The notes: generated from the letters alone by a model not told the origin. Positions 2,889-47,983 are shown, counted from the first letter of the stretch. The stretch: 64,000 bases of DNA from a bacterium (GCA_965261085.1 OZ253442.1:2728445-2792444); one strand, 5' to 3'. Translations and numbers: made by a program.

Positions 2889-3844
2889 TACGATGCGGGA
2901 ATATCGCGCCAGGCGGGAATGATGCCTCCACCCTCGGCCGACATTACTGCGCGGCAAATCGCATGGCCGACGGCCGTCATGGCGGCAGCCCCGACGACGT
3001 CGAGAGCCACCTCTCGCTCCCCGCGGGAGAGTGCGAACACCATGTCTCCATCCACCGTCGTAAAAGAAGGACGGACCGTACGAATGAGCCCGTTCGTCGC
3101 CACCTGGGCGAGTTTGTGGGTTTCGGTTTTCGTCAAGGAGGCATTCGTCGCGACAGCTACGAGCGTCGTGTTCTCGGAAGTATTGGAGAATCCCTCGAAG
3201 GGTCTTCCGTGGATCCTCAAGTGCTCTTCCGTATTCACGATTCCTTGGTCAGGAGGCATCGCCCTCGGCCCTGCGAGGGGATTCCCCGTCTCAGGGTCAT
3301 AGATGCCGCCAAAGGCGTTCACCGCGGCAACCGCGCCCACGACGCCGCCCCCCGGCAGCGCAATGCTCGCCGTACCGACGCCGCCTTTCATGGCGCGCTC
3401 CTGGCCGAACAGTTTCCCTATCGTAGCGCCCGCGCCCGCACCCACGCTCCCCTGGGGGCCTTCGGCGTTCGAGGCCGCCTCGCACGCAGCGCGTCCCATG
3501 GCGGCGTCCGGACGGACTCGGCCATCACCGAAATGCAGGTCGAACAACACGCCCGCTGCGACCGTCGGTACGTTGAAGCGTCCGGTGGGGAACCCTCTTC
3601 CCTGCTCCTCCAGGAAAGCCATGACGCCGTCTGCCGAGGCCAAGCCGAATGCGCTTCCTCCCGTCAGGACGATCGCATCCACGCCTCCGACGAGGTGTTC
3701 GGCGCGCAGCGCGTCCATGCCGCGCGTGGCCGTCGCCGTGCCGCGCAACTCGCACGCCCCGACGGTTCCGGGCGGACAAAGCACCACGGAGACGCCCGTT
3801 TTGGCCCCATCATCGTGCGCGTGGCCGAGATAAAAGCCCGGCAC
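2888..3844 (-). CDS. P1/S58 family peptidase (DmpA-like L-aminopeptidase/D-esterase)
   Basis: 318-aa ORF: MPGFYLGHAHDDGAKTGVSVVLCP... and the ...ENTTLVAVATNASL... segment are characteristic of the DmpA/P1 peptidase family. Confidence 0.8.
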   Translation of the reverse strand: MPGFYLGHAHDDGAKTGVSVVLCPPGTVGACELRGTATATRGMDALRAEHLVGGVDAIVLTGGSAFGLASADGVMAFLEEQGRGFPTGRFNVPTVAAGVLFDLHFGDGRVRPDAAMGRAACEAASNAEGPQGSVGAGAGATIGKLFGQERAMKGGVGTASIALPGGGVVGAVAAVNAFGGIYDPETGNPLAGPRAMPPDQGIVNTEEHLRIHGRPFEGFSNTSENTTLVAVATNASLTKTETHKLAQVATNGLIRTVRPSFTTVDGDMVFALSRGEREVALDVVGAAAMTAVGHAICRAVMSAEGGGIIPAWRDIPAS

Positions 3845-3922
3845 GTCGGTTATGCAACCTTTGAGATCAGAAGGATTCAGAAGAAAGACTCCTCGTTTCC
3901 TGGCGCATCCACAGAGGCCGCT

Positions 3923-4579
3923 TCAGTCCGCGATTGGCAACTCGCCGGGTGCGCGTCCAGGCAATTCACCGGTCTCAAGGATGCTGTCGATGACGTATCT
4001 GTATTGTTCGGCCGGCACCGCGCCGACCATGACCGCGTGATCGTTCACGACTACGGAGGGGATGCCCGTTATCCCCAAATTCGTGGCCTCCATGTATTCC
4101 TTGACGGCTTTTTCCTTCAAACCCCCGTTTTCAATAGCGTCGCGGAACCTGTCCATGTCCAGGCCGCTTTCCTCCGCCACGTCACTCACCACCTCCGGGT
4201 CAGAGATGTTTCTGTTTTTCGTGAAAAAGGCGGCCAGAAGATTGTCGTGAAATTTTTCCCACTCTTCGGGTCCCTGGAATCTCGCCGCCAGCCCCGCTTC
4301 CGCAGACGGCATCGAGCAGTTCGGAAATTCCGCCTCGCTCTCCCATAAGGTGAAATCACCGGAATCGGGCTGCGAATTCGCATTCGTCCAGTGGTTTCTG
4401 CGGTAATCGTTGAACACCGCCGTGGGGTCCGGCTCTGGCCTCAGCATGAAAACCCGGTACTGAATATCTACTTTACCGCCATATTCCTCTTTTACCTTCT
4501 TCAGGCGCACGGCCGAGTTAAAGCACCAGGGTCACAAAAAATCGCTGTACACCGTCAATCGTACAGGGGCGTTATCCAT
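3923..4579 (-). CDS. DsbA/FrnE-like thiol-disulfide oxidoreductase, predicted selenoprotein (in-frame TGA at 4534..4532 read as Sec; motif U-P-W-C)
   Basis: The ORF track begins at GTG 4510. The same frame upstream reads ATG(4579) DNAPVRLTVYSDFL-TGA-PWCFNSAVRLKKVKEEYGG... This restores the DsbA beta1 strand plus a CxxC motif with TGA at the first Cys. A GGAG sits about 10 nt upstream of ATG 4579. The rest of the protein (..GITGIPSVVVNDHAVMVGAVPAEQY..) is a typical FrnE/DsbA fold. Confidence 0.75.
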
Positions 4580-7235: not shown

Positions 7236-8102
7236 ATGCGTGGTTTTGAATTCGTGGCGCCGACGACCTTATCGGCGACCTTAAAGGCGGCAAAAGGCAG
7301 AAACACAAAATACATTGCCGGAGGCACCAATTTCCTGCCCGACCTCAGGCATCAGCACGACGGGCCGGCGAAAGTCGTCATCGACCTGATGAGAGTCTCC
7401 GCGCTGCGGGGGATTTCCTCGGCCAAGGGCGAAATAAAGCTGGGCGCACTGGCGACGATGACGGATTTACTGACCGACAAGACCATCCTTAAGGAAGCGC
7501 CCGTTCTGGTGGCGATGGCGGAGAAATTCGCAGGTCCGATCATCCGAAACCGCGCTTCGGTGGCCGGCAACATCATCGACGGGGGGCCTGCGGCCGACGC
7601 CGTTCTTCCCCTGCTCGCCCTGAAAGCGAAGGTGAGACTCGCCAGCGAAAAAGGAAGAAGAACCGTCGGCCTGGATAAATTCCTCACCGGATATCGCCAG
7701 ACGGCCATCAGGCAGGATGAATTGATCACCGCCGTGACTTTCCCCTCCCCCGGCAGGAACCACAAGTGGGGCTATTACAAACTCGCCCGCCGCAACGCCA
7801 TGGCCATCACCGTGGTGGGCGTGGCGGTCGTGTTGAAGGTGAGGCGCAACAAGGTGGAAGAAGCGGGCATTTCGCTGGGTTCCGTTACGGCGACTCCGAT
7901 CCGCTGCTATGAGGCGGAGAAAATTCTCGAAGGAAACGTGGTCGACCTCGAGTTGGCTCAAAAGGCCGCGGAGGCATGCGCCGCCGTTGCGACGCCGATT
8001 GACGACATTCGCGCATCGGCGGAATACCGCAAGCTGATGTGCGAGGTCTTGCCCCGCCGTCTCATTTGCCAGGCCCTGGATATTTCACAGGACAACGAAT
8101 AG
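7236..8102 (+). CDS. Xanthine dehydrogenase family FAD-binding subunit (CoxM/CutM-like)
   Basis: 288 aa. Typical FAD-binding molybdopterin-dehydrogenase medium subunit (..YIAGGTNFLPDL.., ..RNRASVAGNI.., C-terminal ..DIRASAEYR..). Confidence 0.85.
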   Translation: MRGFEFVAPTTLSATLKAAKGRNTKYIAGGTNFLPDLRHQHDGPAKVVIDLMRVSALRGISSAKGEIKLGALATMTDLLTDKTILKEAPVLVAMAEKFAGPIIRNRASVAGNIIDGGPAADAVLPLLALKAKVRLASEKGRRTVGLDKFLTGYRQTAIRQDELITAVTFPSPGRNHKWGYYKLARRNAMAITVVGVAVVLKVRRNKVEEAGISLGSVTATPIRCYEAEKILEGNVVDLELAQKAAEACAAVATPIDDIRASAEYRKLMCEVLPRRLICQALDISQDNE

Positions 8103-8146: not shown

Positions 8147-8701
8147 ATGGCTACAGCGAGCAAATCAAAACGAACCGCGAAGAAAAAATCGAGCGCACCC
8201 GCATACGTGCCCCCCAAGAAGCTGCCCATTTCCTTCACGGTGAACGGCCAGGAAGTCAACACCGAAGCGCCCGCGCACACCACTTTGCTGTATCTGTTGC
8301 GTGACTTGGGTTTCACCGAAGTGAAAAACGGTTGCGAGGCGGGGGATTGCGGCGCCTGCACGATTCTTCTGGATGGTCTGGCGATGAACGCTTGCTGCGC
8401 GCTCGGCGTCCAGGCGGAAGGGCGTGAAATCACCACGGTCAAAGGCATCGGAACGGTGGGCAACCTCCACCCGATCCAGGAAAAATTCATCGAGCACGGC
8501 GCCATTCAGTGCGGTTTCTGTACGCCTGGAATGATAGTCGCCACGAAGGAATTGCTCGACAACACCCCGAACCCCAGCCGACAGGAAATCAAGGCCGGCA
8601 TCGCGGGCAATCTTTGCCGCTGCACCGGCTATGTGAAGATTATCGACGCTATCGAGGCGGCGGCTGAAGAACTTTCCTCGAAGAAAGGAAAAGGGAAATG
8701 A
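8147..8701 (+). CDS. (2Fe-2S)-binding small subunit (CoxS/CutS-like) with a Lys-rich N-terminal extension
   Basis: Cys motifs GCEAGDCGAC, CGFCTPGMI and NLCRCTGY. GGAGAA lies about 10 nt upstream of ATG 8147. The N-terminus MATASKSKRTAKKKSSAPAYVPPKK precedes the ferredoxin fold. Confidence 0.9.
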   Translation: MATASKSKRTAKKKSSAPAYVPPKKLPISFTVNGQEVNTEAPAHTTLLYLLRDLGFTEVKNGCEAGDCGACTILLDGLAMNACCALGVQAEGREITTVKGIGTVGNLHPIQEKFIEHGAIQCGFCTPGMIVATKELLDNTPNPSRQEIKAGIAGNLCRCTGYVKIIDAIEAAAEELSSKKGKGK

Positions 8702-9648
8702 GTGTGACTGCCTCATCAAACTCAACCAAAGGGGAAAAAAGTTCGTCATACGGATTTGCGAGCGTCGTAGACGTTCAGGAGTCGTTCAGAAAACTCGACT
8801 ACATCTCCGACAAAACGCTGGCGACCACCCTCTTCCTGGCCACGAAACTGGAAAAACCCCTTTTCCTGGAAGGCGAAGCCGGGGTCGGGAAAACCGAACT
8901 CGCCAAGGTGCTCGCCAGCGCGATGGATACCGAGCTCATCCGTCTGCAATGCTACGAGGGTCTCGACGCGAGTTCGGCTCTCTACGAGTGGAACTATGCG
9001 AAACAACTCCTCCACATCAAGATGGAAGAAGGCAGGGACTCGGACGCGAAGTCGATTGAAAAAGATATCTTCAGCGAGCAGTACCTGATAGAACGTCCCC
9101 TGCTTCGTGCGCTTTTGCGCTCGAAAGAAAAGCCGGTGGTCTTGCTCATTGATGAAATCGACCGCTCGGACGAGGAGTTTGAAGCGTTCTTGCTGGAAAT
9201 TCTCTCCGATTTCCAGATTACGATTCCTGAGATGGGGACCATCAAGGCGGTCAGCAAACCCCTGGTGGTGCTCACCAGTAACCGGACGCGTGAAATTCAC
9301 GACGCCCTTAAACGACGCTGCCTTTACCTGTGGGTCGACTACCCCTCTTTTGAGAAAGAAGTGGAGATTATTACGACCAAGGTGCCCGGGATTACCGATC
9401 GCCTGGCGGAGCAAATCGCCCGCTTTATGACGCAGGCGAGGCAGATGGATTTCTACAAACGCCCCGGCGTGGCCGAATCCCTTGATTGGGCGCAAGCGCT
9501 TCTCGCTTTGCATCGGAATGAGCTGGACGTGGAAGCCGTGCGAGAGACCATCGGCTGCATCCTGAAATACCAGGACGACATCAAGCGCATACAGAACGAC
9601 GGCCTCGACAGCATGGTAGCGACGGCGCAACTCTCGCCCGACGCCTGA
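8698..9648 (+). CDS. MoxR-family AAA+ ATPase (CoxD-like)
   Basis: Walker A GEAGVGKT and Walker B VVLLIDEIDR. ATGA overlap with the small-subunit stop. Confidence 0.85.
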   Translation: MSVTASSNSTKGEKSSSYGFASVVDVQESFRKLDYISDKTLATTLFLATKLEKPLFLEGEAGVGKTELAKVLASAMDTELIRLQCYEGLDASSALYEWNYAKQLLHIKMEEGRDSDAKSIEKDIFSEQYLIERPLLRALLRSKEKPVVLLIDEIDRSDEEFEAFLLEILSDFQITIPEMGTIKAVSKPLVVLTSNRTREIHDALKRRCLYLWVDYPSFEKEVEIITTKVPGITDRLAEQIARFMTQARQMDFYKRPGVAESLDWAQALLALHRNELDVEAVRETIGCILKYQDDIKRIQNDGLDSMVATAQLSPDA

Positions 9649-9661
9649 TTCGAGCGACTCC

Positions 9662-10927
9662 ATGGCAACCACCATCCGTCCCATCGTGCAAGGCACTCTG
9701 CCCAAGCGCCGGATTCGCGTAAAGGGCAGAGGCCTGAAGGGCGAGATGATCGGCTTTTGCCGAATTCTCAGGCGCGCGGGTCTCAAGATTACCTCCGGCC
9801 GCATCATCGACGTGTTCCGCAGTTTCGACTCGCTCGAGGCCACGAATCTCGACAACATCTATATCGCCAGCAAGTCGAATCTCATCTCAAGCCAGGATGA
9901 GAGCATGATATTCGACGCCGTGTTCCGGCAATACTGGTTCGATGAGGAAGGAAATCCTTACTCGGGCGACGAATCGGTACAGGTTGACACGCAATTCGAG
10001 GAAGAAGGCGAAGGACAGGCCGACGAGGGGGGCGGAACTTCGGAGGAAGGAGAATCGGACGCCGAAGGAGAGGGGCAGGAAAACCCGGGACTTCCCTCTG
10101 AAGATGACGTGGAGAGCGCCGCCGAACCCGGTGAGCAGGGAGATGACGACGAGGGAGTGCCCTCTTACAGTCCCGCCGAAGTCATATCGGACAAGGATTT
10201 TTCCGCGCTGAACATGGACCAGGTCGCCGAACTCAGGCGCCTCATTGCAAAACTCGTCCCCAAGCTCGCCACCAAAATCAGCCGCCGCAAACGGCCCGAC
10301 ATGCGCTCGCCTGAAATCGACATGAGGCGAAGCGTAACGAGAAGCGTTCGCTCGGGCGGCGAGGTGCTGAAACTTTTCCGCCGGAGAAGAAAGATACAAA
10401 AAACCCAGATCGTGCTGATCTGCGACGTATCTGGGTCGATGGACAGCTACAGTCAGTTCCTGATTCAGTTCCTCTACAGCCTGCAAAACGAGATTAAATC
10501 GCTGCGCACCTTCGTATTCAGCACGCGTCTTTCGGACGCAACGCCGTATCTGCGCCACAAGGACGTCAACACCGCCCTCAAGCGCCTCTCCATGGAGGTG
10601 CACGACTGGAGCGGCGGCACGCAGATCGGCAACTGTCTCAAAACCTTCAACTATGAATACGGCAGAACCATCCTCAACAGCCGCACCATTGTTATTATCA
10701 TATCGGACGGCTGGGATCGGGGCGATACGGATACGCTGGGGGAGCAAATGACTCGCCTCAAGAAAAACTGCCACAAACTCTTCTGGCTCAATCCTCTGCT
10801 GGGTAGCCCCGGCTACCGCCCGATTGACAGGGGAATGAGAACGGCCCTGCCCTATTGCGACGAGTTCCTGGCCGCCCACAACCTCGACAGCCTGGTGGAC
10901 ATGACGAACAGGATCGCGCGCATATAA
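9662..10927 (+). CDS. VWA domain protein (CoxE-like) with a long acidic insert
   Basis: MIDAS-type LICDVSGSM and a C-terminal VWA fold (..IIISDGWDRGD..). It sits directly after the MoxR/CoxD-like gene, as in cox/xdh accessory pairs. Confidence 0.85.
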   Translation: MATTIRPIVQGTLPKRRIRVKGRGLKGEMIGFCRILRRAGLKITSGRIIDVFRSFDSLEATNLDNIYIASKSNLISSQDESMIFDAVFRQYWFDEEGNPYSGDESVQVDTQFEEEGEGQADEGGGTSEEGESDAEGEGQENPGLPSEDDVESAAEPGEQGDDDEGVPSYSPAEVISDKDFSALNMDQVAELRRLIAKLVPKLATKISRRKRPDMRSPEIDMRRSVTRSVRSGGEVLKLFRRRRKIQKTQIVLICDVSGSMDSYSQFLIQFLYSLQNEIKSLRTFVFSTRLSDATPYLRHKDVNTALKRLSMEVHDWSGGTQIGNCLKTFNYEYGRTILNSRTIVIIISDGWDRGDTDTLGEQMTRLKKNCHKLFWLNPLLGSPGYRPIDRGMRTALPYCDEFLAAHNLDSLVDMTNRIARI

Positions 10928-13536: not shown

Positions 13537-14490
13537 TCATGCGCCCAGTATCTTCTCGGCTGCGCTGTAAGGGTCCACCCTTCGCGCGGCGATGGCGTCC
13601 AAGAGTTCATCCAGTTCCCGCCCGCCTTCCGCGCCATCTCCCATGCGCTCGACCGCGAGTTCTTTCATCACCTCTGCGAGCGTGATGCGGGCGCGCTCCC
13701 GTCCCAGACGGTCGGTTTCATCCGGGTGTTCTTGCAAAAAGACCATGCGCGCCTCGATCTGCGCGACCAATTCCTCCGTGCCCTCGCCCGTGAGCGCTTC
13801 TGTCTTCAGCACGGGAGGCCTCCATGAACCGTCGCCGGGATGGAACTTGAAGTCCAGCATTTCTTCGATTTCCATGACGGTGCGGTCCGCGCCGTCACGC
13901 TTCGCCTTGTTCACCACGAAGATATCGCCGATTTCCAGGATTCCCGCTTTCGCCGCCTGAATGTGATCCCCACCACCGGGCGTTTGGAGTAAAACGACCA
14001 CATCGGCACATTGCATGATGCTCACCTCGCCCTGCCCCACGCCTACCGTCTCGATGATCACGACGTCCCAGCCCATGGCGTCCATGACGCAGAGCGCATC
14101 TCCCGTCGCGCGGGCGAGTCCGCCCAGATGGCCGCGCGTGGCCATGCTCCGAATAAAGACTTTCGGGTCCGTATTGTGCCTGCCCATGCGGATGCGATCA
14201 CCCAAAATGGCGCCTCCCGTGAACGGACTCGTCGGGTCCACCGCGATGACGCACACCTTTTCATCCCGGCTGCGAAAGTGAGCGATCAACTGATCGGAAA
14301 GGGTACTTTTCCCTGCGCCGGGGGGGCCCGTGATGCCGATGACCAGGCTTTTTCCGCCTCTTAAATACAGTTCTTGCAGAATGGGTTTTGCGCGCGGATC
14401 ATTGTCTTCGACCAGCGTGATAAGTCTGGCGGCGGGACGGACCATTCCATCGAGAATCTGTGAGATTTGCATTTGATTTCTGTTGCTCAT
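13537..14490 (-). CDS. meaB: Methylmalonyl-CoA mutase-associated GTPase MeaB/ArgK
   Basis: P-loop GITGPPGAGKSTL, DVVIIETVGVGQ, and an NKxD-like FVVNKAKRD. No mutase gene lies in this window. Confidence 0.85.
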   Translation of the reverse strand: MSNRNQMQISQILDGMVRPAARLITLVEDNDPRAKPILQELYLRGGKSLVIGITGPPGAGKSTLSDQLIAHFRSRDEKVCVIAVDPTSPFTGGAILGDRIRMGRHNTDPKVFIRSMATRGHLGGLARATGDALCVMDAMGWDVVIIETVGVGQGEVSIMQCADVVVLLQTPGGGDHIQAAKAGILEIGDIFVVNKAKRDGADRTVMEIEEMLDFKFHPGDGSWRPPVLKTEALTGEGTEELVAQIEARMVFLQEHPDETDRLGRERARITLAEVMKELAVERMGDGAEGGRELDELLDAIAARRVDPYSAAEKILGA

Positions 14491-27819: not shown

Positions 27820-29130
27820 TCAGTCCGATTCATCCGGCGGCGGGCCGGGCGGGTTCTCATCGCTTTCGGGCTCCACTCCGAAGAGTTTCTGGACGGATTC
27901 GACCGAAATGCCCTCCACGTCTTCTTCCGCCATCTGGCGCAGGACGGCGAAGGGATGGTGGAGAAGCTTGTTGACCAGCGCCTTCGTCATGGCGTCAAGC
28001 GCATCACGACCGTCCCCGCCCAATTCGGGTAGGCGAAGAATGGTTTTTTCGACTTCCGTCCGGCGCATCGACTCCGCAAAGAAACGTATGGCCGCAAAGG
28101 TGTACCTGAGATCCTCCGCCTTCTGGCGGGCGAGATAGGTCTGCACCTCGCTTTCCAGGATCGCGCGCGCGTCGCGGGCCACCTCCTCGCGATCCCGTAG
28201 GTTGTCCGCCGCTACGGACTGCAAGTCATCCACATCGTAGAGATATGCGTCTTCCAGTTCGTTCACGTCGGGCGCGACGTTTCTCGGCACGGCGATGTCG
28301 ATGAGAAAAACCGGCGCGTCGCGGCGGCGCTCGAGCGCAGCGGCCACGGTCGGCTTATCCAGAATGAAACCCTGCGAGGCCGTCGAGGTGATGACGACGT
28401 CGGCGTCGATGAGCGCTTGCTCGAGATTATCGAAACTCACGGCGCGCCCCTTGAGTTTTGCGGCCAACTCCTGGGCGCGCGCGAGCGTCCTGTTCGCCAC
28501 CTGGAGGGTGTCCGCCCCGCTCGCCTTGAGATGCCTCGCCGCCGCCTCGCCCATCTCGCCCGCGCCCAGCAAGAGCACGTTCTTCCCCGCAAGGGAGCCG
28601 AAAATTCTTTTGGCCAAATCCACGGCGACGGAGCTCACCGACACCGGCGACTCGCCTATCGGCGTCTGCTCGCGAATCTTTTTCGCCACGCGAAACGCGC
28701 GGGAGAAGAGGTTCGTGAGCGCCTTTCCGGCGTGGCCCGAGGCCTGGGCGACCCGGTAGGCTTCTTTCACCTGGCCCAAAATCTGCGGCTCACCCACCAC
28801 CATGGAATCGAGGCTCGACGCCACGGTGAACAGATGCCGCGTGGCTTCGGCTTCGCGGTGAACGTAGAGATGGGCGTTCAGCTCCTCTCGGCCGATATCG
28901 CGTGATTCCAGGAAAAAGCGATGAATCGCATCGAGTCCCTGTTCCAGATCATCCACTGCGCTGTAGACTTCCACCCTGTTGCACGTCGAGAGGATGAGGC
29001 GCTCATCGAGCTCGTGGTAGCCGGCCAGCCTGTCGAGCCACTCGCTCATGTTCCCTTCGGGGAAATAGAGGCGCTCTCGAATGCTGAGCGGCGTGTTGTG
29101 GTGGCTCACGCCGGCGAGAATGATGGACAT
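27820..29130 (-). CDS. hemA: Glutamyl-tRNA reductase
   Basis: ..LSTCNRVEVY.. (catalytic Cys), ..LLLGAGEMGE.. (NADPH site), 436 aa. Confidence 0.95.
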   Translation of the reverse strand: MSIILAGVSHHNTPLSIRERLYFPEGNMSEWLDRLAGYHELDERLILSTCNRVEVYSAVDDLEQGLDAIHRFFLESRDIGREELNAHLYVHREAEATRHLFTVASSLDSMVVGEPQILGQVKEAYRVAQASGHAGKALTNLFSRAFRVAKKIREQTPIGESPVSVSSVAVDLAKRIFGSLAGKNVLLLGAGEMGEAAARHLKASGADTLQVANRTLARAQELAAKLKGRAVSFDNLEQALIDADVVITSTASQGFILDKPTVAAALERRRDAPVFLIDIAVPRNVAPDVNELEDAYLYDVDDLQSVAADNLRDREEVARDARAILESEVQTYLARQKAEDLRYTFAAIRFFAESMRRTEVEKTILRLPELGGDGRDALDAMTKALVNKLLHHPFAVLRQMAEEDVEGISVESVQKLFGVEPESDENPPGPPPDESD

Positions 29131-40037: not shown

Positions 40038-40904
40038 TCAGGAAGCGCCCAACGCCTTCAGGATGGTTCGCCTGATCAAGACGGGCGTCACCTGTTTCCT
40101 GTAGTCGCCGCTCGCGCGGATATCGGTCAGAGGCTCCAGGTCATCGAGGGTTTCCGCGAGCACGGCGTCGATGTTCTCCTGGTTGAGTTCCTTGCCTCGC
40201 AGACCCTCTTCCGCCGCCGTGAGGCGTCTGAACACGGCCTCCACTCCCCCTAAGCCGATTCGCACCTCTTTGGCCGTCTTGCCGTCTTCTTCGGTGAGCA
40301 CCGCGGTGGAGACGGAAACGCAGGGCTTGTCCTCTTTGGAGCGCGTGGTGAAGCGCGTGTAGGCCGTCCTGAATCCATCGGGCAGTGGGTCGACCTCGAT
40401 CGAACACAGCAACTCATCCTCATCCAACGCGCATTCGTAATATCCCGTCCAGAACTCCGTCGCGGGAATCACCCGCTCTGAGCCGTCCGCCTTTTTGGTG
40501 TTCATGCGGGCCTCAAGGGCCAGAAAAGCGCCTGGAGGATCCGATGCCGGTTCCGCAAAGCACAAGTTGCCGCCCACCGTCCCCTGGTTTCGGATGCGAA
40601 TCGTGGCCACGTTGTGGAAGATTTCCGCGAGCAGCGGGAAGCGTTCCTGAACGAGCGGGGAGAGTTCGATCTTGCGGTGCACCGTCTTCGCCCCGATGCG
40701 GACGCCGCCGTTGTCGGTTCCTTCGATGAAATCCAGATCACTCGCCCCCGCAATGTCTATCAACACCTCGGGTTCGTACACCCGCGATTTCATGAGAATC
40801 GAGAGGGCGACGCCGCCGGCGAACACTTTCCCGTCCTCGCCGTGCTCCTTCATGGCGGCGAGCGTTTCCTCCGCGCTGTTCGCGGATAGATGCCGAAAAG
40901 ACAT
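40038..40904 (-). CDS. Xanthine dehydrogenase family FAD-binding subunit (second copy)
   Basis: 288 aa with ..VFAGGVALSILM.., ..IRNQGTVGGNL.., ..DIRASGDYR... Confidence 0.85.
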   Translation of the reverse strand: MSFRHLSANSAEETLAAMKEHGEDGKVFAGGVALSILMKSRVYEPEVLIDIAGASDLDFIEGTDNGGVRIGAKTVHRKIELSPLVQERFPLLAEIFHNVATIRIRNQGTVGGNLCFAEPASDPPGAFLALEARMNTKKADGSERVIPATEFWTGYYECALDEDELLCSIEVDPLPDGFRTAYTRFTTRSKEDKPCVSVSTAVLTEEDGKTAKEVRIGLGGVEAVFRRLTAAEEGLRGKELNQENIDAVLAETLDDLEPLTDIRASGDYRKQVTPVLIRRTILKALGAS

Positions 40905-40923
40905 TTTTTATCCCCTCTCCTCG

Positions 40924-43209
40924 CTATTCACCATTTTTCTCGTTCAGGGCAGCCAACACTTTTTCCGGCGTTATCGGCAGCGACGTGATTCGTACGCCCA
41001 CGGCGTCATAGATAGCGTTCCCTATCGCCGCCGACGTTCCCAACTGCGCCATCTCGCCCAGCCCTTTCGCCCCATAGGGTCCCGAGGGATTTTCCGTCTC
41101 GATAAGCACGGCTTCGAGTTCGGGTAAATCCTGGGTCGTCGGCAGCTTGTAGTCGAGCCAGTTCGCGTTCACCGGCTGTCCGTCTTCGACTTCGAAATCC
41201 TCCATCATGGCGTAGCCCACGCCCATCAGCACGCCGCCGTCCAGTTGGCCCAGCGCGCCGGCTGGGTTCACGATGGTTCCGACGTCGTTCGTGCTGATGA
41301 CCCGCAAGACCTCGAACGCGCCGGTTTCGGTGTCCACTTCCACCTCCGCCACCTTGGCGCCGTAGGCATAGGCCGCGGACCAGTTTCCATAACCCGTCAC
41401 GGGGTCTGGCGTCTCGCTCGGCGAGTCATAAGAAGACGCCGTGTAGACGGCCTCGCTGCCCTCTTTTTCGTATATCTTCATGTAGGCTTCGCTGTGAGTC
41501 ACCTGCCGCTCGGGAGAACTGGTGACGAAAATTTTGCCCTTTCGAGCGTCCAGGTCGTTCGGGTCGCACTCGAGCAGTTCCGCCGCGCCCTTGAAGAGCA
41601 TGTTCTTCGCCTGGACCGCCGCCAGGCGCGTAGCCTCGCCGTCGATGGTCGTCGTACGGCTTCCCCGCACGCCCCACCCGTAGGGGTTCACCGCAGTATC
41701 CCCGTTGATGATACGAACATCCTCCACGCGTACACCCAACGCTTCGGCGCAAATCTGCGCGAGCGTGGTGTCCGAGCCGTTGCCCATCTCGATCGTGCCC
41801 GAGAGCAACTGCACGGTGCCGTCCTTGTTCATCTTGATGAACGCGCCCGCCGTCTCCGGTCCCATTGCGCGCGCGCCGGTGAAATGAACCGCCGCGGCCA
41901 GCCCGAAGCCGCGCTTTTTCCCGTTGCTGCTCGGTTGTTCCTGACGCCAGGGCACGCGCTTGACCGCTTCCTGTACGCACTCGGAAACACCGCAACTCGT
42001 GATCTTGGCCCCGATGATGGTGGTGTCGCCCTTCCTCACGAAGTTCTTGATGCGAAACTCCGCCGGGTCCATGCCGATTTCATCGGCGTGTTTCTCCATC
42101 GCGAGTTCAGAACCAAAGGAATAGCCGCCGTTGCCTATGCCGCGCATCGCGCCGCCGGGCGGCACGTTCGTGCAGACGACGTCGGCATGGTGGCGATAGG
42201 CCTTGTAGTTGTAGATGCTCCCGCCCATGTGCGCCGTGATGCCGCCGACCGCCGGGCCGTAATCGGAATAGCCGCCGTTTTCAACGACCATCCGGGTGTC
42301 GCGCGCCAGGAGCATGCCGTCCTTGTCCGTGGCGATGCGCCAGACGTGGAACTGCTTCGTCCGGTGGGTGCCGAGGAGGAACTCCTCTTCGCGGTCATAG
42401 TAGAATTTCACGGGAAGACCCAGCTTTTTCGCCGCGATGATCGAGAGGAAATCTATGTTGAACTTACTCGTCGCCTTTCCGCCGAACCCCCCGCCCACGT
42501 AGTTCGTGATCACGCGAATCTGGGCCTCTGGAATCTTGAGGAGCTTGGAGAAATACTGGCTCGAAAGACTCGGGCATTGCGAGGAGTTGTAGACCGTCAC
42601 GTCGCCCTTTTGCGACCATTCGGCGATGGAGACGTGCATCTCGAAAGAACCGTGCATCTGGCGCGAGGAGGACGTGGCCAACTCGCTCACGTGGTGAGCC
42701 TCGTCGAACATGCGGTCCACGTCGCCGAATTCCATGTGCTTGGTGAAGGCGATGTTATTCGGGTATCTGTCATGGATGATGGGAGCGCCCTCTTGCATCG
42801 CTTCTTTCGGATCGAAGACGGCGGGAAGATCCTCGTAGTCGACGTCGATCAGATCGAGCGCCTCTTTCGCGATGTCTTCTGAAATCGCCACGACGGCGGC
42901 CACCGAGTCGCCCACGTGTCGCACCTTGTCCGAGGCGAGGGGACGCTGATCGTAGCAAACGGGTACGACGCCCCACTCCACTTCCTCGGGGATGTCCTTG
43001 GACGTCATCACGAGTTTGACGCCGGGTAGCCTCTCGGCGCGGCTGGTGTCGATGTTCTTGATTCGCGCGTGCGGAAGTGGACTTCCCAGCAGTTTTCCGT
43101 GAAGCATTTTGGGCAACTGGAGGTCCAGGGTGTACATGGCCCGGCCCGTCACCTTTTCCGGCCCATCGACGCGAGGCACGCTTTTTCCGACGTATGAGAG
43201 TTCAGCCAT
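40924..43209 (-). CDS. Xanthine dehydrogenase/aldehyde oxidase family molybdopterin-binding large subunit
   Basis: 761 aa from ATG 43209 (GGAGG 6 nt upstream). a/b-hammerhead N-terminus (..PRVDGPEKVTGRAMY..), ..GGGFGGK.., ..GGAMRGIG.., ..GAKGLGE... It does not carry the CODH-type AYRCSFR/AYRGAGR loop. Confidence 0.9.
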   Translation of the reverse strand: MAELSYVGKSVPRVDGPEKVTGRAMYTLDLQLPKMLHGKLLGSPLPHARIKNIDTSRAERLPGVKLVMTSKDIPEEVEWGVVPVCYDQRPLASDKVRHVGDSVAAVVAISEDIAKEALDLIDVDYEDLPAVFDPKEAMQEGAPIIHDRYPNNIAFTKHMEFGDVDRMFDEAHHVSELATSSSRQMHGSFEMHVSIAEWSQKGDVTVYNSSQCPSLSSQYFSKLLKIPEAQIRVITNYVGGGFGGKATSKFNIDFLSIIAAKKLGLPVKFYYDREEEFLLGTHRTKQFHVWRIATDKDGMLLARDTRMVVENGGYSDYGPAVGGITAHMGGSIYNYKAYRHHADVVCTNVPPGGAMRGIGNGGYSFGSELAMEKHADEIGMDPAEFRIKNFVRKGDTTIIGAKITSCGVSECVQEAVKRVPWRQEQPSSNGKKRGFGLAAAVHFTGARAMGPETAGAFIKMNKDGTVQLLSGTIEMGNGSDTTLAQICAEALGVRVEDVRIINGDTAVNPYGWGVRGSRTTTIDGEATRLAAVQAKNMLFKGAAELLECDPNDLDARKGKIFVTSSPERQVTHSEAYMKIYEKEGSEAVYTASSYDSPSETPDPVTGYGNWSAAYAYGAKVAEVEVDTETGAFEVLRVISTNDVGTIVNPAGALGQLDGGVLMGVGYAMMEDFEVEDGQPVNANWLDYKLPTTQDLPELEAVLIETENPSGPYGAKGLGEMAQLGTSAAIGNAIYDAVGVRITSLPITPEKVLAALNEKNGE

Positions 43210-43503
43210 CACAACCTCCACTCGTTTGCGGCATCAAAGGGCATGCCGCAGGGCGCTTTTATGTTCTTGTCCTTTGCTTGATAATTGGATAGGTATGGCA
43301 ATTCGATCACATCGCAATCTCCCGGGAGTCGACAGAACACGATGTCACCTTCTTTGCATTCTATGAGCCTATCATAACAACTCCAGGGGCAAAACAAAAC
43401 CCCCCAAAAATCGACGACCGAGGCCCTTAAAACCCCTTCTGGGAACATCCCTACCGACTTTCTCGCCAAAAAAGTTATAAGCTTAGGAAGACCTAAAACG
43501 CCT

Positions 43504-44415
43504 TCAACAACCTATATCTCGCCTCATTGCCTGCAATGAGTCAGATGCTTTTACTCTAGCCAAGTCACCGAGAAATGTGTCAGTGATTTTTTCTTTCTGA
43601 CGTTCCGACATAGAAGCATGCTGTTCAGACTCATAATTTGCTTTAGCGTTCACATAATCGAAAAATTCACTAGGAACATTCTGGCGACCAGAAATTGTAC
43701 CGCCTTTGACGGCTACTCTCGTTCCCTGCCAGTCGCTGGGTCGATCATCGCGCAAAACTCCGAAGATGAAAAAACGAGGAAGTTTCATATAAACCATATG
43801 ACGATGGCTATTTTTTATTAAGTCTATGTGTATACTTCGCATCACATGTCGGTTGATGTTGTGTGGAATATCTCCTCCAGTGGCATTTACAGAGCCCACC
43901 AAGAATAAGTGCTGGCGAAATTGGCCCGGGTGTGGACGGAGACCAATGAGAAACTCCTTCCAAATTTTTTCAGCTCTACCAACAGACTCACGCTCTGCGT
44001 CAGAGTAATCATCCAACCCATCTCCCTCCATAAACCAACGGAGCACACGCCACGACAACGAAACGCAAAATCTTAAAAACCAAGGCCCATATCTAATTTG
44101 GGTGAGGCGATCTTCTACAAAAGGATAGAACAACTTACTCGCGAACTGCCTCTCGTTTTCACCCAAGATGCCCTCGCAAGAAGAACATAGCCAACGCTTT
44201 TTTTCACCATCTTGAACGCGCCTGTTCATTGTCTCAGCAAAACGGATATGTCCTGTTGCCGATGTCTCGCGCATCCAACGGAAAAGAAATGCAGGTAGAA
44301 CGTGACTGTTTTGTAATTCGCAATAAGAATCGCAAAGATAGCAGTTCCCTAATATCACCATATTTTCCCTCAAAACACTTAACGGAGCGTGTGAACCCGC
44401 CATGCAATATTCCAA
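43504..44415 (-). CDS. Hypothetical Cys-rich protein with an HNH/beta-beta-alpha-Me-like N-terminal motif, in a low-GC island
   Basis: 303-aa ORF. CYLCDSYCELQNSHVLPAFLF ... WLCSSCEGIL has the layout CxxC ... SH-h-h-P ... CxxC. The local GC (35-45% by hand count) is far below the flanks. The function is not established. Confidence 0.5.
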   Translation of the reverse strand: MEYCMAGSHAPLSVLRENMVILGNCYLCDSYCELQNSHVLPAFLFRWMRETSATGHIRFAETMNRRVQDGEKKRWLCSSCEGILGENERQFASKLFYPFVEDRLTQIRYGPWFLRFCVSLSWRVLRWFMEGDGLDDYSDAERESVGRAEKIWKEFLIGLRPHPGQFRQHLFLVGSVNATGGDIPHNINRHVMRSIHIDLIKNSHRHMVYMKLPRFFIFGVLRDDRPSDWQGTRVAVKGGTISGRQNVPSEFFDYVNAKANYESEQHASMSERQKEKITDTFLGDLARVKASDSLQAMRRDIGC

Positions 44416-44631
44416 AATCTAAATTATCGATCCAAACTTCGATCATTAAACATATATTACACTACACACACAGAATGAATTCTAAAATTTATACATGAGG
44501 CCATGTTCGCCACTTTGAGAAATCCTCAGTTCCGCTTTCTCCCCTTCGGCTTGTGGTGTATCATCCGCCGTATTGAACCCGAAAAATGAACTTTCGGATC
44601 ACCCCATAGACACCAAAACTGGAGTAACGCA

Positions 44632-45378
44632 ATGCCCATTCGTTTCGATTTCCAGGGCCGAAAGGTCATCCTCACGGGCGCGGCGGGCGCCATGGGAAGC
44701 CGCATCCTGCAAGGATACCTGGAAGCCGGCGCCAAGGTTTTCGCCACCGACAGGGAAGGCGAGACCTTCGGCGCAATAGACGGCCCGTCCGATCAACTCT
44801 TCAAGCTCCCCTGCGATTTGGCCGACGTGGACGCCATCCGCACCACGATGCGCACGGCTCTCGAGTGGCTGGGCGGCTGCGACGTACTGGCGAACGTGGC
44901 CGGCTACATGCCGATTCGCCCCCCGATGGAACTCGAAGAAGCGGACTGGGAGGTAGTGCTCGGCGTGAACCTGCTCGCCCCTTATTTCTGCATTCAGGAG
45001 ACCATCGAGGCGCTCAAGGCCTCTGGCACGGGACGCATCATCAGTTTCGCCTCCATCGCCGGTAAAATGGGGGGCATCGGCCCGAATCTCACCTACGCCG
45101 CCGCCAAGGCGGGCCTGCTCGCCATGACGTTCAACCTGGCGCGGGAACTCGCCAAGACGGGCGTGACGATCAACACCATTCAGCCGGGCCCGGCCGATAC
45201 GGGCCTTCACTTCCAGTCCCCGCCCGAGATGCTGGTGAACGCAGCGAACGCCCACCCTATGGGCAGGCTCACGACGCCCGAGGACGTGTGGCACACCGTC
45301 TTGTTCCTAACGAGCGAGGAGGCCGCCCACATCAACGGAGAAGCCGTGGACGTGAACGGCGGTTTCTGGACGGATTAG
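44632..45378 (+). CDS. SDR family oxidoreductase
   Basis: TGAAGAMG, a Ser ... YAAAKAG catalytic region, and ..INTIQPGP... Confidence 0.9.
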   Translation: MPIRFDFQGRKVILTGAAGAMGSRILQGYLEAGAKVFATDREGETFGAIDGPSDQLFKLPCDLADVDAIRTTMRTALEWLGGCDVLANVAGYMPIRPPMELEEADWEVVLGVNLLAPYFCIQETIEALKASGTGRIISFASIAGKMGGIGPNLTYAAAKAGLLAMTFNLARELAKTGVTINTIQPGPADTGLHFQSPPEMLVNAANAHPMGRLTTPEDVWHTVLFLTSEEAAHINGEAVDVNGGFWTD

Positions 45379-45393
45379 AAGGAGGAGAACACC

Positions 45394-46230
45394 ATGTCGA
45401 GTGACAACCCGAAAGGCTATGCGAATCCCGACCTGCTCTGGTCGGTCGAACAACTCAAAGAGCGCATGGACGACCCGAACTTAAGAATCATCGACACCCG
45501 CCCCGGCGAGCGCTACACGATGGGCCACATCCCCGGCGCGCGTCATTTCGACGTCTACGGCGTGAACAGCGATGATTCGGACGAGGCTCCGCTCAGGAAT
45601 TTCTTCTCCATGTGGGCGTTTTTGCTGGGAAACCGGGGGGTGTCGTTCGAGAACACCATCGTCTTCTACGACGACTTCGTCGGCAACACGAGCGTGCGCG
45701 GCTTCTGGATGCTGGAGCTTTTCGGCCATAAGGACGTCCACATCCTGGACGGCGGCTACGGCGCATGGGAGCGGGCGGGCTTCGAGACGACGCGGGACGC
45801 CGAAGTTCCCCGGGCCGTCCCCTTCAAAATGGCGTTCGAGCCGCACCGCCTCGCCACGCGCGAGGACGTACTGGCGGCCATCGAGGATGACAACCACATG
45901 CTGCTCGACACCCGCTCGGTAGAGGAATGGGAGGGGCGGAGCATGCGCGCCAAACGAGGAGGAATCATCCCAGGAGCCGTCTGGCAGGAGTGGCTCCAGC
46001 ACTTGACGCCCGAGGGCGAGATGAAGCCCGCGGACGAACTGAGAGCGCAGTTCGCGGCTATCGGGATCACGCCCGAAAAAGAAGTAACCGCCTACTGACA
46101 GACGGGCTACCGTGCGGCGCACGGTTACTTCGCCCTGCGGCTTCTGGATTACCCCAAAATCAGAAACTACATGAGTTCCTGGAAGGAATGGGGCAATCGC
46201 GAGGACACGCCCATCGCACAGGCCCAGTAG
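45394..46230 (+). CDS. Two-domain rhodanese (thiosulfate/3-mercaptopyruvate sulfurtransferase-like), predicted selenoprotein (TGA 46096..46098 read as Sec at the catalytic position)
   Basis: The track ORF stops at TGA 46096. The same frame continues [46 protein letters not shown](46228..46230). This gives ...EKEVTAY-U-QTGYRAA..., the canonical active-site loop C-x-x-G-x-R with TGA at the Cys. A strong AGGAGGAG SD precedes ATG 45394, and a hairpin lies 11 nt after the TGA. Confidence 0.8.
46104..46135 (+). promoter_or_regulatory. Candidate bacterial SECIS hairpin for the rhodanese UGA
   Basis: ACCGUGC-GGC-GCACGGU forms a perfect 7-bp stem (46109..46125) with a G-rich apex. It is flanked by a possible lower helix GGGC (46104..46107) / GCCC (46132..46135). 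The apex lies about 20 nt after the UGA. Confidence 0.4.
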
Positions 46231-46945: not shown

Positions 46946-47983
46946 TCAGGCCATCGCGGGCGCGACCTCTTTGGCGAATCTCTCCAGAAGTCTGAGAGAC
47001 TCCTCGTGTTTCATCCCGTCGCCGTAAACGCCGAGAATCACGTGGTTCAGCCCAAAATCGTCCCTTAATCGATAAAGCTCCTGAATGTTCTCTTTCGCGG
47101 AGCCGATGACGCCGCCGCCTTTCAAGAACTCGCGCACGTCAAGCTTGTAGCTCCAGTTGCGCCGGAGGTGCCTCCCCTCCTCGTCCGTGAACTCCACCTC
47201 GTTCACCCTGGAGCGGTATTCGAGATAGGAGGAAAGCCCGCGCTCGAAAGTTTTCAGATAATCGGCCTGCTCGTTGTCCTCACAGACGTAGAAGCGATGC
47301 GTCATGGTGTAGTCGATGTCGGAGGTATCTCCCCCGGCCGCCGCCACGGCCTCCTCGTAGAGCTTCATCTTCTCGCGGTAGACTTTAGGGCCTTTGAAGC
47401 CGGCCGAGGCCATGATCTTGAACCCGTTCTCGCCTGCGTAGGTGTAGGTCTCGGGACTCGTTCCGGCGAGCCAGATGGGCGGCCTCGGCTTTTGGATGGG
47501 TCGGGGGAAAATCTGCACGTCCTTGCACTGGTAATACTCGCCCTCGAAGGTCATCTGCTCGCCTTCCAGGAGCCTCGAGACGATCTCCATGCCTTCTACG
47601 AGGCGCTTTCTGCTCTCGGAGGGTTTTACGCCGAAAGTCTTGAATTCCTTGGGCTGGGAACCCCGGCCCACGCCCAGTTCCAGCCGTCCGCCGCTAAGCA
47701 GATCGACCACCGCCGCCTGCTCGGCAAGACGCACTGGATTGTGGAAAGGCATGATGGAAATCGCCGTGCCCAGGCGGATGTTTTTCGTCTTCTGCGCCAG
47801 CGCCGCGCACCATAGCAGCGGGTCGGGGCACATACCAACTTTTGAGAAATGATGCTCCGCGAACCAGGCGCAGTAGTAGCCTAGTTCATCCGCCGCCTGG
47901 CACTGCTCCATCACCTTCTGGTAGGCGTCGGCTTCTGATTCATCCCCCTCGGGACAAATCACGTAAAAAATCGAGAATTTCAT
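46946..47983 (-). CDS. LLM-class flavin-dependent oxidoreductase (luciferase-like monooxygenase)
   Basis: MKFSIFY..., ..AWFAEHHF.., ..GRLELGVGRG.., ..PPIWLAGTSPET... Confidence 0.85.
   Translation of the reverse strand: MKFSIFYVICPEGDESEADAYQKVMEQCQAADELGYYCAWFAEHHFSKVGMCPDPLLWCAALAQKTKNIRLGTAISIMPFHNPVRLAEQAAVVDLLSGGRLELGVGRGSQPKEFKTFGVKPSESRKRLVEGMEIVSRLLEGEQMTFEGEYYQCKDVQIFPRPIQKPRPPIWLAGTSPETYTYAGENGFKIMASAGFKGPKVYREKMKLYEEAVAAAGGDTSDIDYTMTHRFYVCEDNEQADYLKTFERGLSSYLEYRSRVNEVEFTDEEGRHLRRNWSYKLDVREFLKGGGVIGSAKENIQELYRLRDDFGLNHVILGVYGDGMKHEESLRLLERFAKEVAPAMA

Follow-up and report, generated by a model that had tools for sequence, protein, structure and literature searches.

A two-domain rhodanese predicted to carry selenocysteine at a conserved in-frame UGA, followed by a SECIS-type hairpin, in a Nitrospinota/Tectomicrobia lineage

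Described selenocysteine rhodaneses and the gene at 45394..46230

In 2005, the Sargasso Sea data led to the prediction of 15 new selenoprotein families, among them the 'rhodanese-related sulfurtransferase' of COG2897 (PMC1088965). The family turned up once more in Olavius symbionts in 2007 (PMC1976440) and was reported from GOS in 2008, as cd01449 and COG2897 (PMC2398784). A review of 2022 places the family under 'Predicted' (PMC9312934). The preliminary description of the gene studied here had correctly stated that rhodanese-related selenoproteins were predicted from ocean metagenomes (PMC1088965, PMC2398784) and knew of no biochemical characterisation; our literature search likewise found none for a selenocysteine (Sec) rhodanese of this type. 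The gene lies on the plus strand of a stretch of 64,000 nucleotides of bacterial DNA, hereafter the window. Its predicted product shares with the published family (COG2897 SseA/cd01449) the two-domain PF00581 architecture of the COG2897 type, Sec in place of the catalytic Cys within U-x-x-G (here U-Q-T-G), a candidate bacterial SECIS element with a small G-containing apical loop just downstream, a marine or symbiont origin, and the circumstance that all of these proteins are known only from sequence prediction. A PF00581 domain carrying Sec in UxxG at the catalytic position, as tabulated in PMC13188914, is thus also found here. The catalogued UxxG forms are 'form 4' and 'form 2', to which the window protein is likened by domain type and motif, the published representatives (AACY01016424, MQG53192.1 and MCY3690685.1) being compared by description only. 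One related locus, L006, was considered as such a representative and rejected, its record MCY3824267.1 belonging to the same accession series as MCY3690685.1 and being a different record. We regard the window gene as a new member of a selenoprotein family that had been predicted before, or at most as a well-resolved clade within it; its lineage is already known to be rich in selenoproteins. Since the family has been predicted since 2005 and heavy Sec usage in the lineage is published, no new category is opened.

The complete coding sequence (45394..46230) is preceded by a Shine-Dalgarno motif, AGGAGG, read from the sequence at 45380..45385, with the ATG at 45394 following 8 nt further on. According to the preliminary description, the annotated ORF ends at TGA 46096..46098 and the same frame then continues for 43 codons to a TAG at 46228..46230, giving a conceptual product of 278 residues with U at position 235; these coordinates are exact, and the product could be reproduced exactly from the sequence. 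The 43 codons 3' of the TGA (46099..46227) complete the catalytic loop and supply the C-terminal portion of the domain to which it belongs (…NY.SW.EWGN…). We regard the TAG as the true stop, as the relatives terminate within a few codons of the same position, with the exception of locus L021, whose product is about 9 residues longer than those of the other relatives. The 278-residue product matches the Pfam rhodanese profile PF00581 twice (E=4e-34) and aligns from end to end with the solved two-domain rhodaneses 1uar (Thermus) and 1e0c (Azotobacter RhdA) at E~1e-42, with the TGA column falling on the catalytic Cys of both structures. The alignment and the double profile match thereby bear out the rhodanese active-site loop and the conserved C-terminal tail that had been proposed for this gene. 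In common with RhdA (1e0c) and Thermus thermophilus 1uar, the window protein has its length, the domain order, an N-terminal domain in the inactive YDD configuration, a six-residue catalytic loop starting from the same column of the C-terminal, catalytic domain, and the C-terminal …NY.GSW.EWGN motif. It differs in the nucleophile, predicted to be Sec in the loop UQTGYR of the window protein, whereas both structures carry Cys (RhdA loop CQTHHR). By these alignments, the product of 45394..46230 is classed as a two-domain rhodanese of the thiosulfate/3-mercaptopyruvate sulfurtransferase type (COG2897), with predicted sulfurtransferase activity. As none of the NCBIfam equivalogs reaches its cut-off, the best being 3-mercaptopyruvate sulfurtransferase with 139 versus 250 bits, no specific sulfurtransferase subtype is assigned. 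Two further NCBIfam families have a rhodanese domain and a link to selenium in common with the window protein, namely NF041203, 'rhodanese-related (seleno)protein' (LYCAU), and NF040901, ExtH. However, their architecture and Sec position are unlike those found here and they do not represent the same family: NF041203, defined by a CxU motif as opposed to UxxG in the window, scores 34.4 bits against a cut-off of 115, and ExtH 41 against 200 bits.

Conservation of the TGA codon, the downstream frame and the hairpin

Comparison at the protein level covered the 120 best database relatives. Among these, the catalytic column, which is occupied by Cys in the solved structures, also holds Cys in 94 of 94 full-length relatives (~279 aa), while 25 protein clusters are 234 aa long and end exactly in …TAY; one entry, P0106 (209 aa), is an incomplete record that stops short of the column. 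The 234-aa relatives are 72–94% identical to the window protein and carry the source labels Nitrospinota or Tectomicrobia. At the DNA level we compared 80 loci, drawn from a set of genomes in which each GTDB species is represented once. TGA occupies the catalytic column in 31 of them (L001–L030 and L032), which stem from MAGs labelled Nitrospinota/Tectomicrobia, mostly species representatives, with one MAG counted twice as the source of both L013 and L032. A further 22 loci, from more distantly related bacteria (Alpha- and Gammaproteobacteria, Acidobacteriota and others), have TGC or TGT at the same column. Behind the TGA, the frame is intact and conserved in all 31 loci over 42–52 codons (43–47 in most), so that the stops or frameshifts which the preliminary description had named as evidence against its own reading do not occur in the segment equivalent to 46099..46227. 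In a neighbour-joining tree of 66 sequences, calculated with the Sec/Cys column masked, 30 of 30 TGA sequences group in one clade without any Cys member, which is nested among Cys forms and has the Cys protein P0009 as its sister. This topology fits a single switch from Cys to Sec, kept down to 74% protein identity.

An open extension of 43 codons after a stop is by itself not rare by chance. The tail alone, however, is 79% identical to the C-terminus of P0009, the nearest Cys homologue (E=5e-24). From Nei-Gojobori estimates for every pairing among 30 genes of the TGA lineage (the window and 29 loci, with L022 and L032 left out), we obtained a dN/dS of 0.17 at a dS of 0.68 for the upstream part (codons 2–232) and of 0.12 at a dS of 0.88 for the tail (codons 246–275). 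Purifying selection at the protein level acts on the tail as it does on the remainder of the gene, from which we conclude that the tail is translated. The selection likewise excludes a pseudogene or a relic frame, and weighs against the view that the TGA is a genuine stop, leaving a truncated protein of 234 residues or a pseudogene followed by a remnant of the former frame. This view agrees with all public annotations seen, in which the product has 234 aa. However, a relic would be expected to decay, and genes down to 74% protein identity have accumulated neither stops nor frameshifts. As had been pointed out in the preliminary description, termination at the TGA would moreover leave the protein without its catalytic loop, and we find that the 234-residue form would also lack the C-terminal part of the catalytic domain. 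We therefore consider a genuine stop extremely improbable.

Two other readings of the open frame, a separate small protein encoded by the 43 codons (a split gene) and a reassignment of UGA, for example to Trp or Gly, have nothing in their favour beyond the open frame itself, and the probability we attach to them is close to nil. In a split gene, the sole ATG of the tail, Met260, would leave only 19 residues, no Shine-Dalgarno motif is seen by eye in the tail, and the synonymous suppression described below already begins at about the TGA. Regarding reassignment, 22 other ORFs within the 64-kb window end in TGA and Pfam matches there reach the end of the profile, which makes UGA an ordinary stop in this genome segment and excludes an altered code; an enzyme with Trp or Gly in place of the catalytic Cys would, in addition, be inactive. 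We also screened the window for in-frame TGAs flanked by coding signal upstream and downstream. None at Trp or Gly columns were seen, and two other candidates were rejected, the one at 27822 on the minus strand reflecting two adjacent heme-biosynthesis genes that share one frame and the one at 13825 on the plus strand being antisense to a MeaB gene.

Directly behind the TGA, synonymous sites are nearly frozen. Among the 30 TGA-lineage genes, codons 236–245 display a dS of 0.13, compared to 0.7–0.9 elsewhere, with no amino-acid change, and a synonymous-codon entropy of 0.21 compared to a gene mean of 0.75, a value that ranks within the lowest 5 of 266 windows of ten codons. The suppression spans codons 233–244, and thus starts about at the TGA (two codons before it). 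Such a pattern argues for an RNA element overlapping the coding sequence, and SECIS prediction downstream of the TGA, which had been proposed as a check, yielded a SECIS-type hairpin at 46109..46125 on the plus strand. The predicted core consists of a 7-bp stem, ACCGUGC/GCACGGU, and the apical loop GGC, which starts 17 nt after the UGA. As far as the criteria of the bSECISearch consensus model are summarised in the 2026 review PMC13188914, the hairpin agrees with all four published bacterial criteria and lies within all limits of the model: the apical loop has 3 nt (model 3–9 nt), the G required in the first two loop positions is present as GG, the upper stem has 7 bp (4–16 bp), the spacing from UGA to loop amounts to 17 nt (16–37 nt) and the MFE to about −10.5 kcal/mol (at most −7.5 kcal/mol). 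It departs from the bacterial consensus in that a lower stem, if there is any, is weak and made of G·U pairs only. Local MFE averages −10.5 kcal/mol for the TGA lineage and −4.3 kcal/mol for the Cys relatives (Mann-Whitney p=8e-10); the hairpin belongs to the TGA lineage alone and is missing from the Cys relatives. Its chance rate in the window is low: only 0.5–0.6% of positions or TGA triplets are followed, at the spacing of a SECIS, by an uninterrupted stem of 7 bp or more whose loop contains a G.

The sequence of the hairpin is reflected in the protein, which reads R-A-A-H-G in the Sec lineage versus R-S-A-H-A in most Cys relatives. The underlying changes from Ser to Ala (UCN to GCG) and from Ala to Gly (GCC to GGU) supply three of the seven stem pairs. 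No compensatory covariation was found in the stem, because it is almost invariant across the TGA lineage and hardly varies at all. Two species representatives, the loci L017 and L019, carry an uncompensated U-to-C exchange in the 5' stem arm about 17 nt after the TGA (corresponding to window position 46113), which introduces a C·A mismatch and weakens the hairpin from about −10.5 to −6.3 kcal/mol; both still keep the TGA and an intact tail. They constitute a natural test of the stem stability needed by the SECIS element. At gathering thresholds, Rfam gave no match in the whole window. A permissive Rfam scan of 46060–46200 returned c-di-GMP-I-UAU on the minus strand with 16.9 versus 65.9 bits, which was rejected as a chance match.

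Decoding of the UGA codon

We consider it highly probable that the gene encodes a two-domain rhodanese containing Sec, specified by the conserved in-frame UGA together with a SECIS element of canonical type. According to this model, the hairpin at 46109–46125, situated within the coding sequence, would act as a bacterial SECIS during translation and recruit SelB·GTP·Sec-tRNA(Sec) to the UGA at 46096–98, so that Sec would be inserted instead of termination taking place and the ribosome would proceed through 43 codons to the TAG. Rhodaneses operate by ping-pong sulfur transfer. In the window protein, the selenolate of U-Q-T-G-Y-R would attack a sulfane sulfur donor such as thiosulfate, giving an enzyme-bound Se-S(-) intermediate, from which the sulfur would then be handed to a thiophilic acceptor (a thiol, sulfite or cyanide). 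Compared to Cys, Sec may benefit the enzyme by its lower pKa, its higher nucleophilicity and its resistance to irreversible over-oxidation. Sec insertion itself, the trans-acting machinery in the window genome, the substrate and the catalytic benefit are inferred.

The alternative to be weighed here is that the UGA is read through without any Sec system, by a near-cognate tRNA (Trp, Cys or Arg) at low efficiency and perhaps stimulated by the hairpin, which would result in a full-length, selenium-free protein. Sequence by itself does not decide which residue is inserted, and a Sec-machinery gene is absent from the 64-kb window, two points that are compatible with such read-through. More precisely, none of selA, selB and selD was found among the 50 ORFs scanned in the window, a result which is uninformative for 64 kb of a contig of about 4.27 Mb, and a search for tRNA-Sec with ARAGORN finds no tRNA in the window nor in 32 related loci. 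An active rhodanese, however, requires Cys or Sec at this position, and a lineage in need of Cys would be expected to revert TGA to TGC or TGT by a single base exchange, yet TGA is kept in 31 of 31 loci. Furthermore, the hairpin agrees with the SECIS consensus, both in its spacing and in the G of its apical loop. Finally, a sibling MAG of the window genome is catalogued as rich in selenoproteins. BSepDB, which admits a genome only with at least two of SelA, SelB and SelD, lists three MAGs of the GTDB phylum UBA8248, named Nitrospinota/Nitrospinae, in its top ten of selenoprotein-rich bacteria (PMC13326102). Among these three are FO_M_Nitrospinota_01 with 54 selenoprotein genes and the Aplysina sponge bin107 with 48 (PMC13326102), the former being the very MAG which supplies locus L023. 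In the sponge Aplysina aerophoba, the majority of symbiont bins contained SelA and SelB together. The lineage uses Sec; for the window genome itself the support is indirect, via the sibling MAG of L023. We therefore judge Sec-independent read-through to be very unlikely, and prefer Sec insertion at the UGA.

Gene neighbourhood and implications

A gene for an SDR-family oxidoreductase (44632..45378, plus strand; Pfam adh_short_C2, E=2e-44; FabG-like in NCBIfam, below cut-off) stops 15 nt before the ATG of the rhodanese gene and is therefore a likely operon partner. It is found directly upstream in nearly all TGA-lineage loci that reach that far, and also in the Cys locus L034. On the minus strand follows an operon for a molybdenum hydroxylase of the xanthine dehydrogenase family, with the large subunit at 40924–43221 and the FAD subunit at 40038–40904, which is divergent from the rhodanese gene in most loci. 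No recognisable 2Fe-2S small subunit adjoins the genes at 40038–43221, and an interrupted small-subunit gene considered at 43209–43800 was rejected in view of many stops in its translation and a low GC content. A second set related to molybdenum hydroxylases is located on the plus strand and comprises a CoxM-like FAD subunit (7236–8102), a MoxR/CoxD-like AAA ATPase (8698–9648) and a CoxE-like VWA protein (9662–10927).

Downstream of the rhodanese gene and on the same strand, an ABC importer is encoded in 17 of the 31 TGA-lineage loci, distributed over both sub-clades: L005 (6795–10528), L003, L007, L012, L014–L021, L023, L024, L026, L029 and L030. It is composed of a binding protein resembling the SsuA family (110.8 bits versus an NCBIfam cut-off of 163.5), an ATPase and two permeases. 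In some of these loci, the tail of the rhodanese gene and the ORF for the binding protein overlap. The importer is absent from the window, from L001, L002, L004, L006, L008–L011 and L013, and was seen beside none of the Cys-type relatives. The window and the loci most closely related to it have lost the importer. A luciferase-like monooxygenase at 46946–47983 was rejected as SsuD (74 bits against a cut-off of 518), which leaves the sulfonate link to the SsuA-like binding protein, itself below cut-off. The neighbourhood hints at an organosulfur context, to be taken as a lead and not as a finding. One could envisage the Sec-rhodanese as a dedicated sulfur/selenium relay for an organosulfur-uptake module instead of a stand-alone detoxifying enzyme, a proposal that we put forward as speculative and on balance doubtful. 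Such a relay would process sulfite or sulfane sulfur from imported sulfonates by an Se-S(-) or Se-Se(-) intermediate or, alternatively, would pass the chalcogen on to the molybdenum cofactor of the hydroxylase encoded next to it.

Some observations on the surrounding DNA should be noted. The interval between the genes for the molybdenum-hydroxylase large subunit and the SDR (43230–44630) forms an island of low GC content, 0.41–0.48 compared to 0.58–0.66 in the flanks, and contains an ORF on the minus strand (43504–44415) for a Cys-rich protein of 303 aa with no Pfam or NCBIfam match. As the corresponding interval of L001 and L002, the closest relatives, is no more than about 330 nt long, the island looks like a recent insertion of foreign DNA. 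In the MAG CBDCRP01, the region of SDR, Sec-rhodanese and molybdenum-hydroxylase genes is present in two syntenic copies (L013 on contig_2 and L032 on contig_3), with a one-base length difference in the N-terminal part of the rhodanese gene in the L032 copy (703-nt match), for which an indel error of long-read sequencing, a strain haplotig or the decay of a duplicate may account. Elsewhere in the window, an ORF of 461 aa (2963–4348, plus strand) shows a coding-like GC3, an unusually high GC content at first positions (0.73) and no Pfam or NCBIfam match, and may be a spurious frame or an unknown gene.

All public records of the clade that we saw give a 'sulfurtransferase' or 'rhodanese-like domain-containing protein' of 234 aa, cut at the predicted Sec codon, with examples in GenBank (MYA98022.1, MDE0330720.1, MCY3824267.1, MFC1491694.1 and OGL60137.1), in IMG and in UniRef (A0A932I1C1). 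The annotations of the clade in these resources consequently describe a fragment that is predicted to be catalytically dead. Since no NCBIfam model covers the UxxG selenoprotein form, the clade of 31 sequences with its near-invariant SECIS could seed a model of this type and correct many annotations. New compared to the published family are the monophyletic clade of 30 species, the statistics on selection, the amino-acid replacements by which the SECIS was built, and the gene neighbourhood, with its SDR, ABC-importer and molybdenum-hydroxylase genes as a functional lead. Natural pairs of Sec and Cys orthologues, for example with P0009 or L034, offer a test of what selenium contributes to persulfide-transfer chemistry. 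With the predicted SECIS built by two replacements right beside the active-site loop (RSAHA to RAAHG), the clade would present a case in which an RNA signal has reshaped the catalytic neighbourhood of an enzyme.
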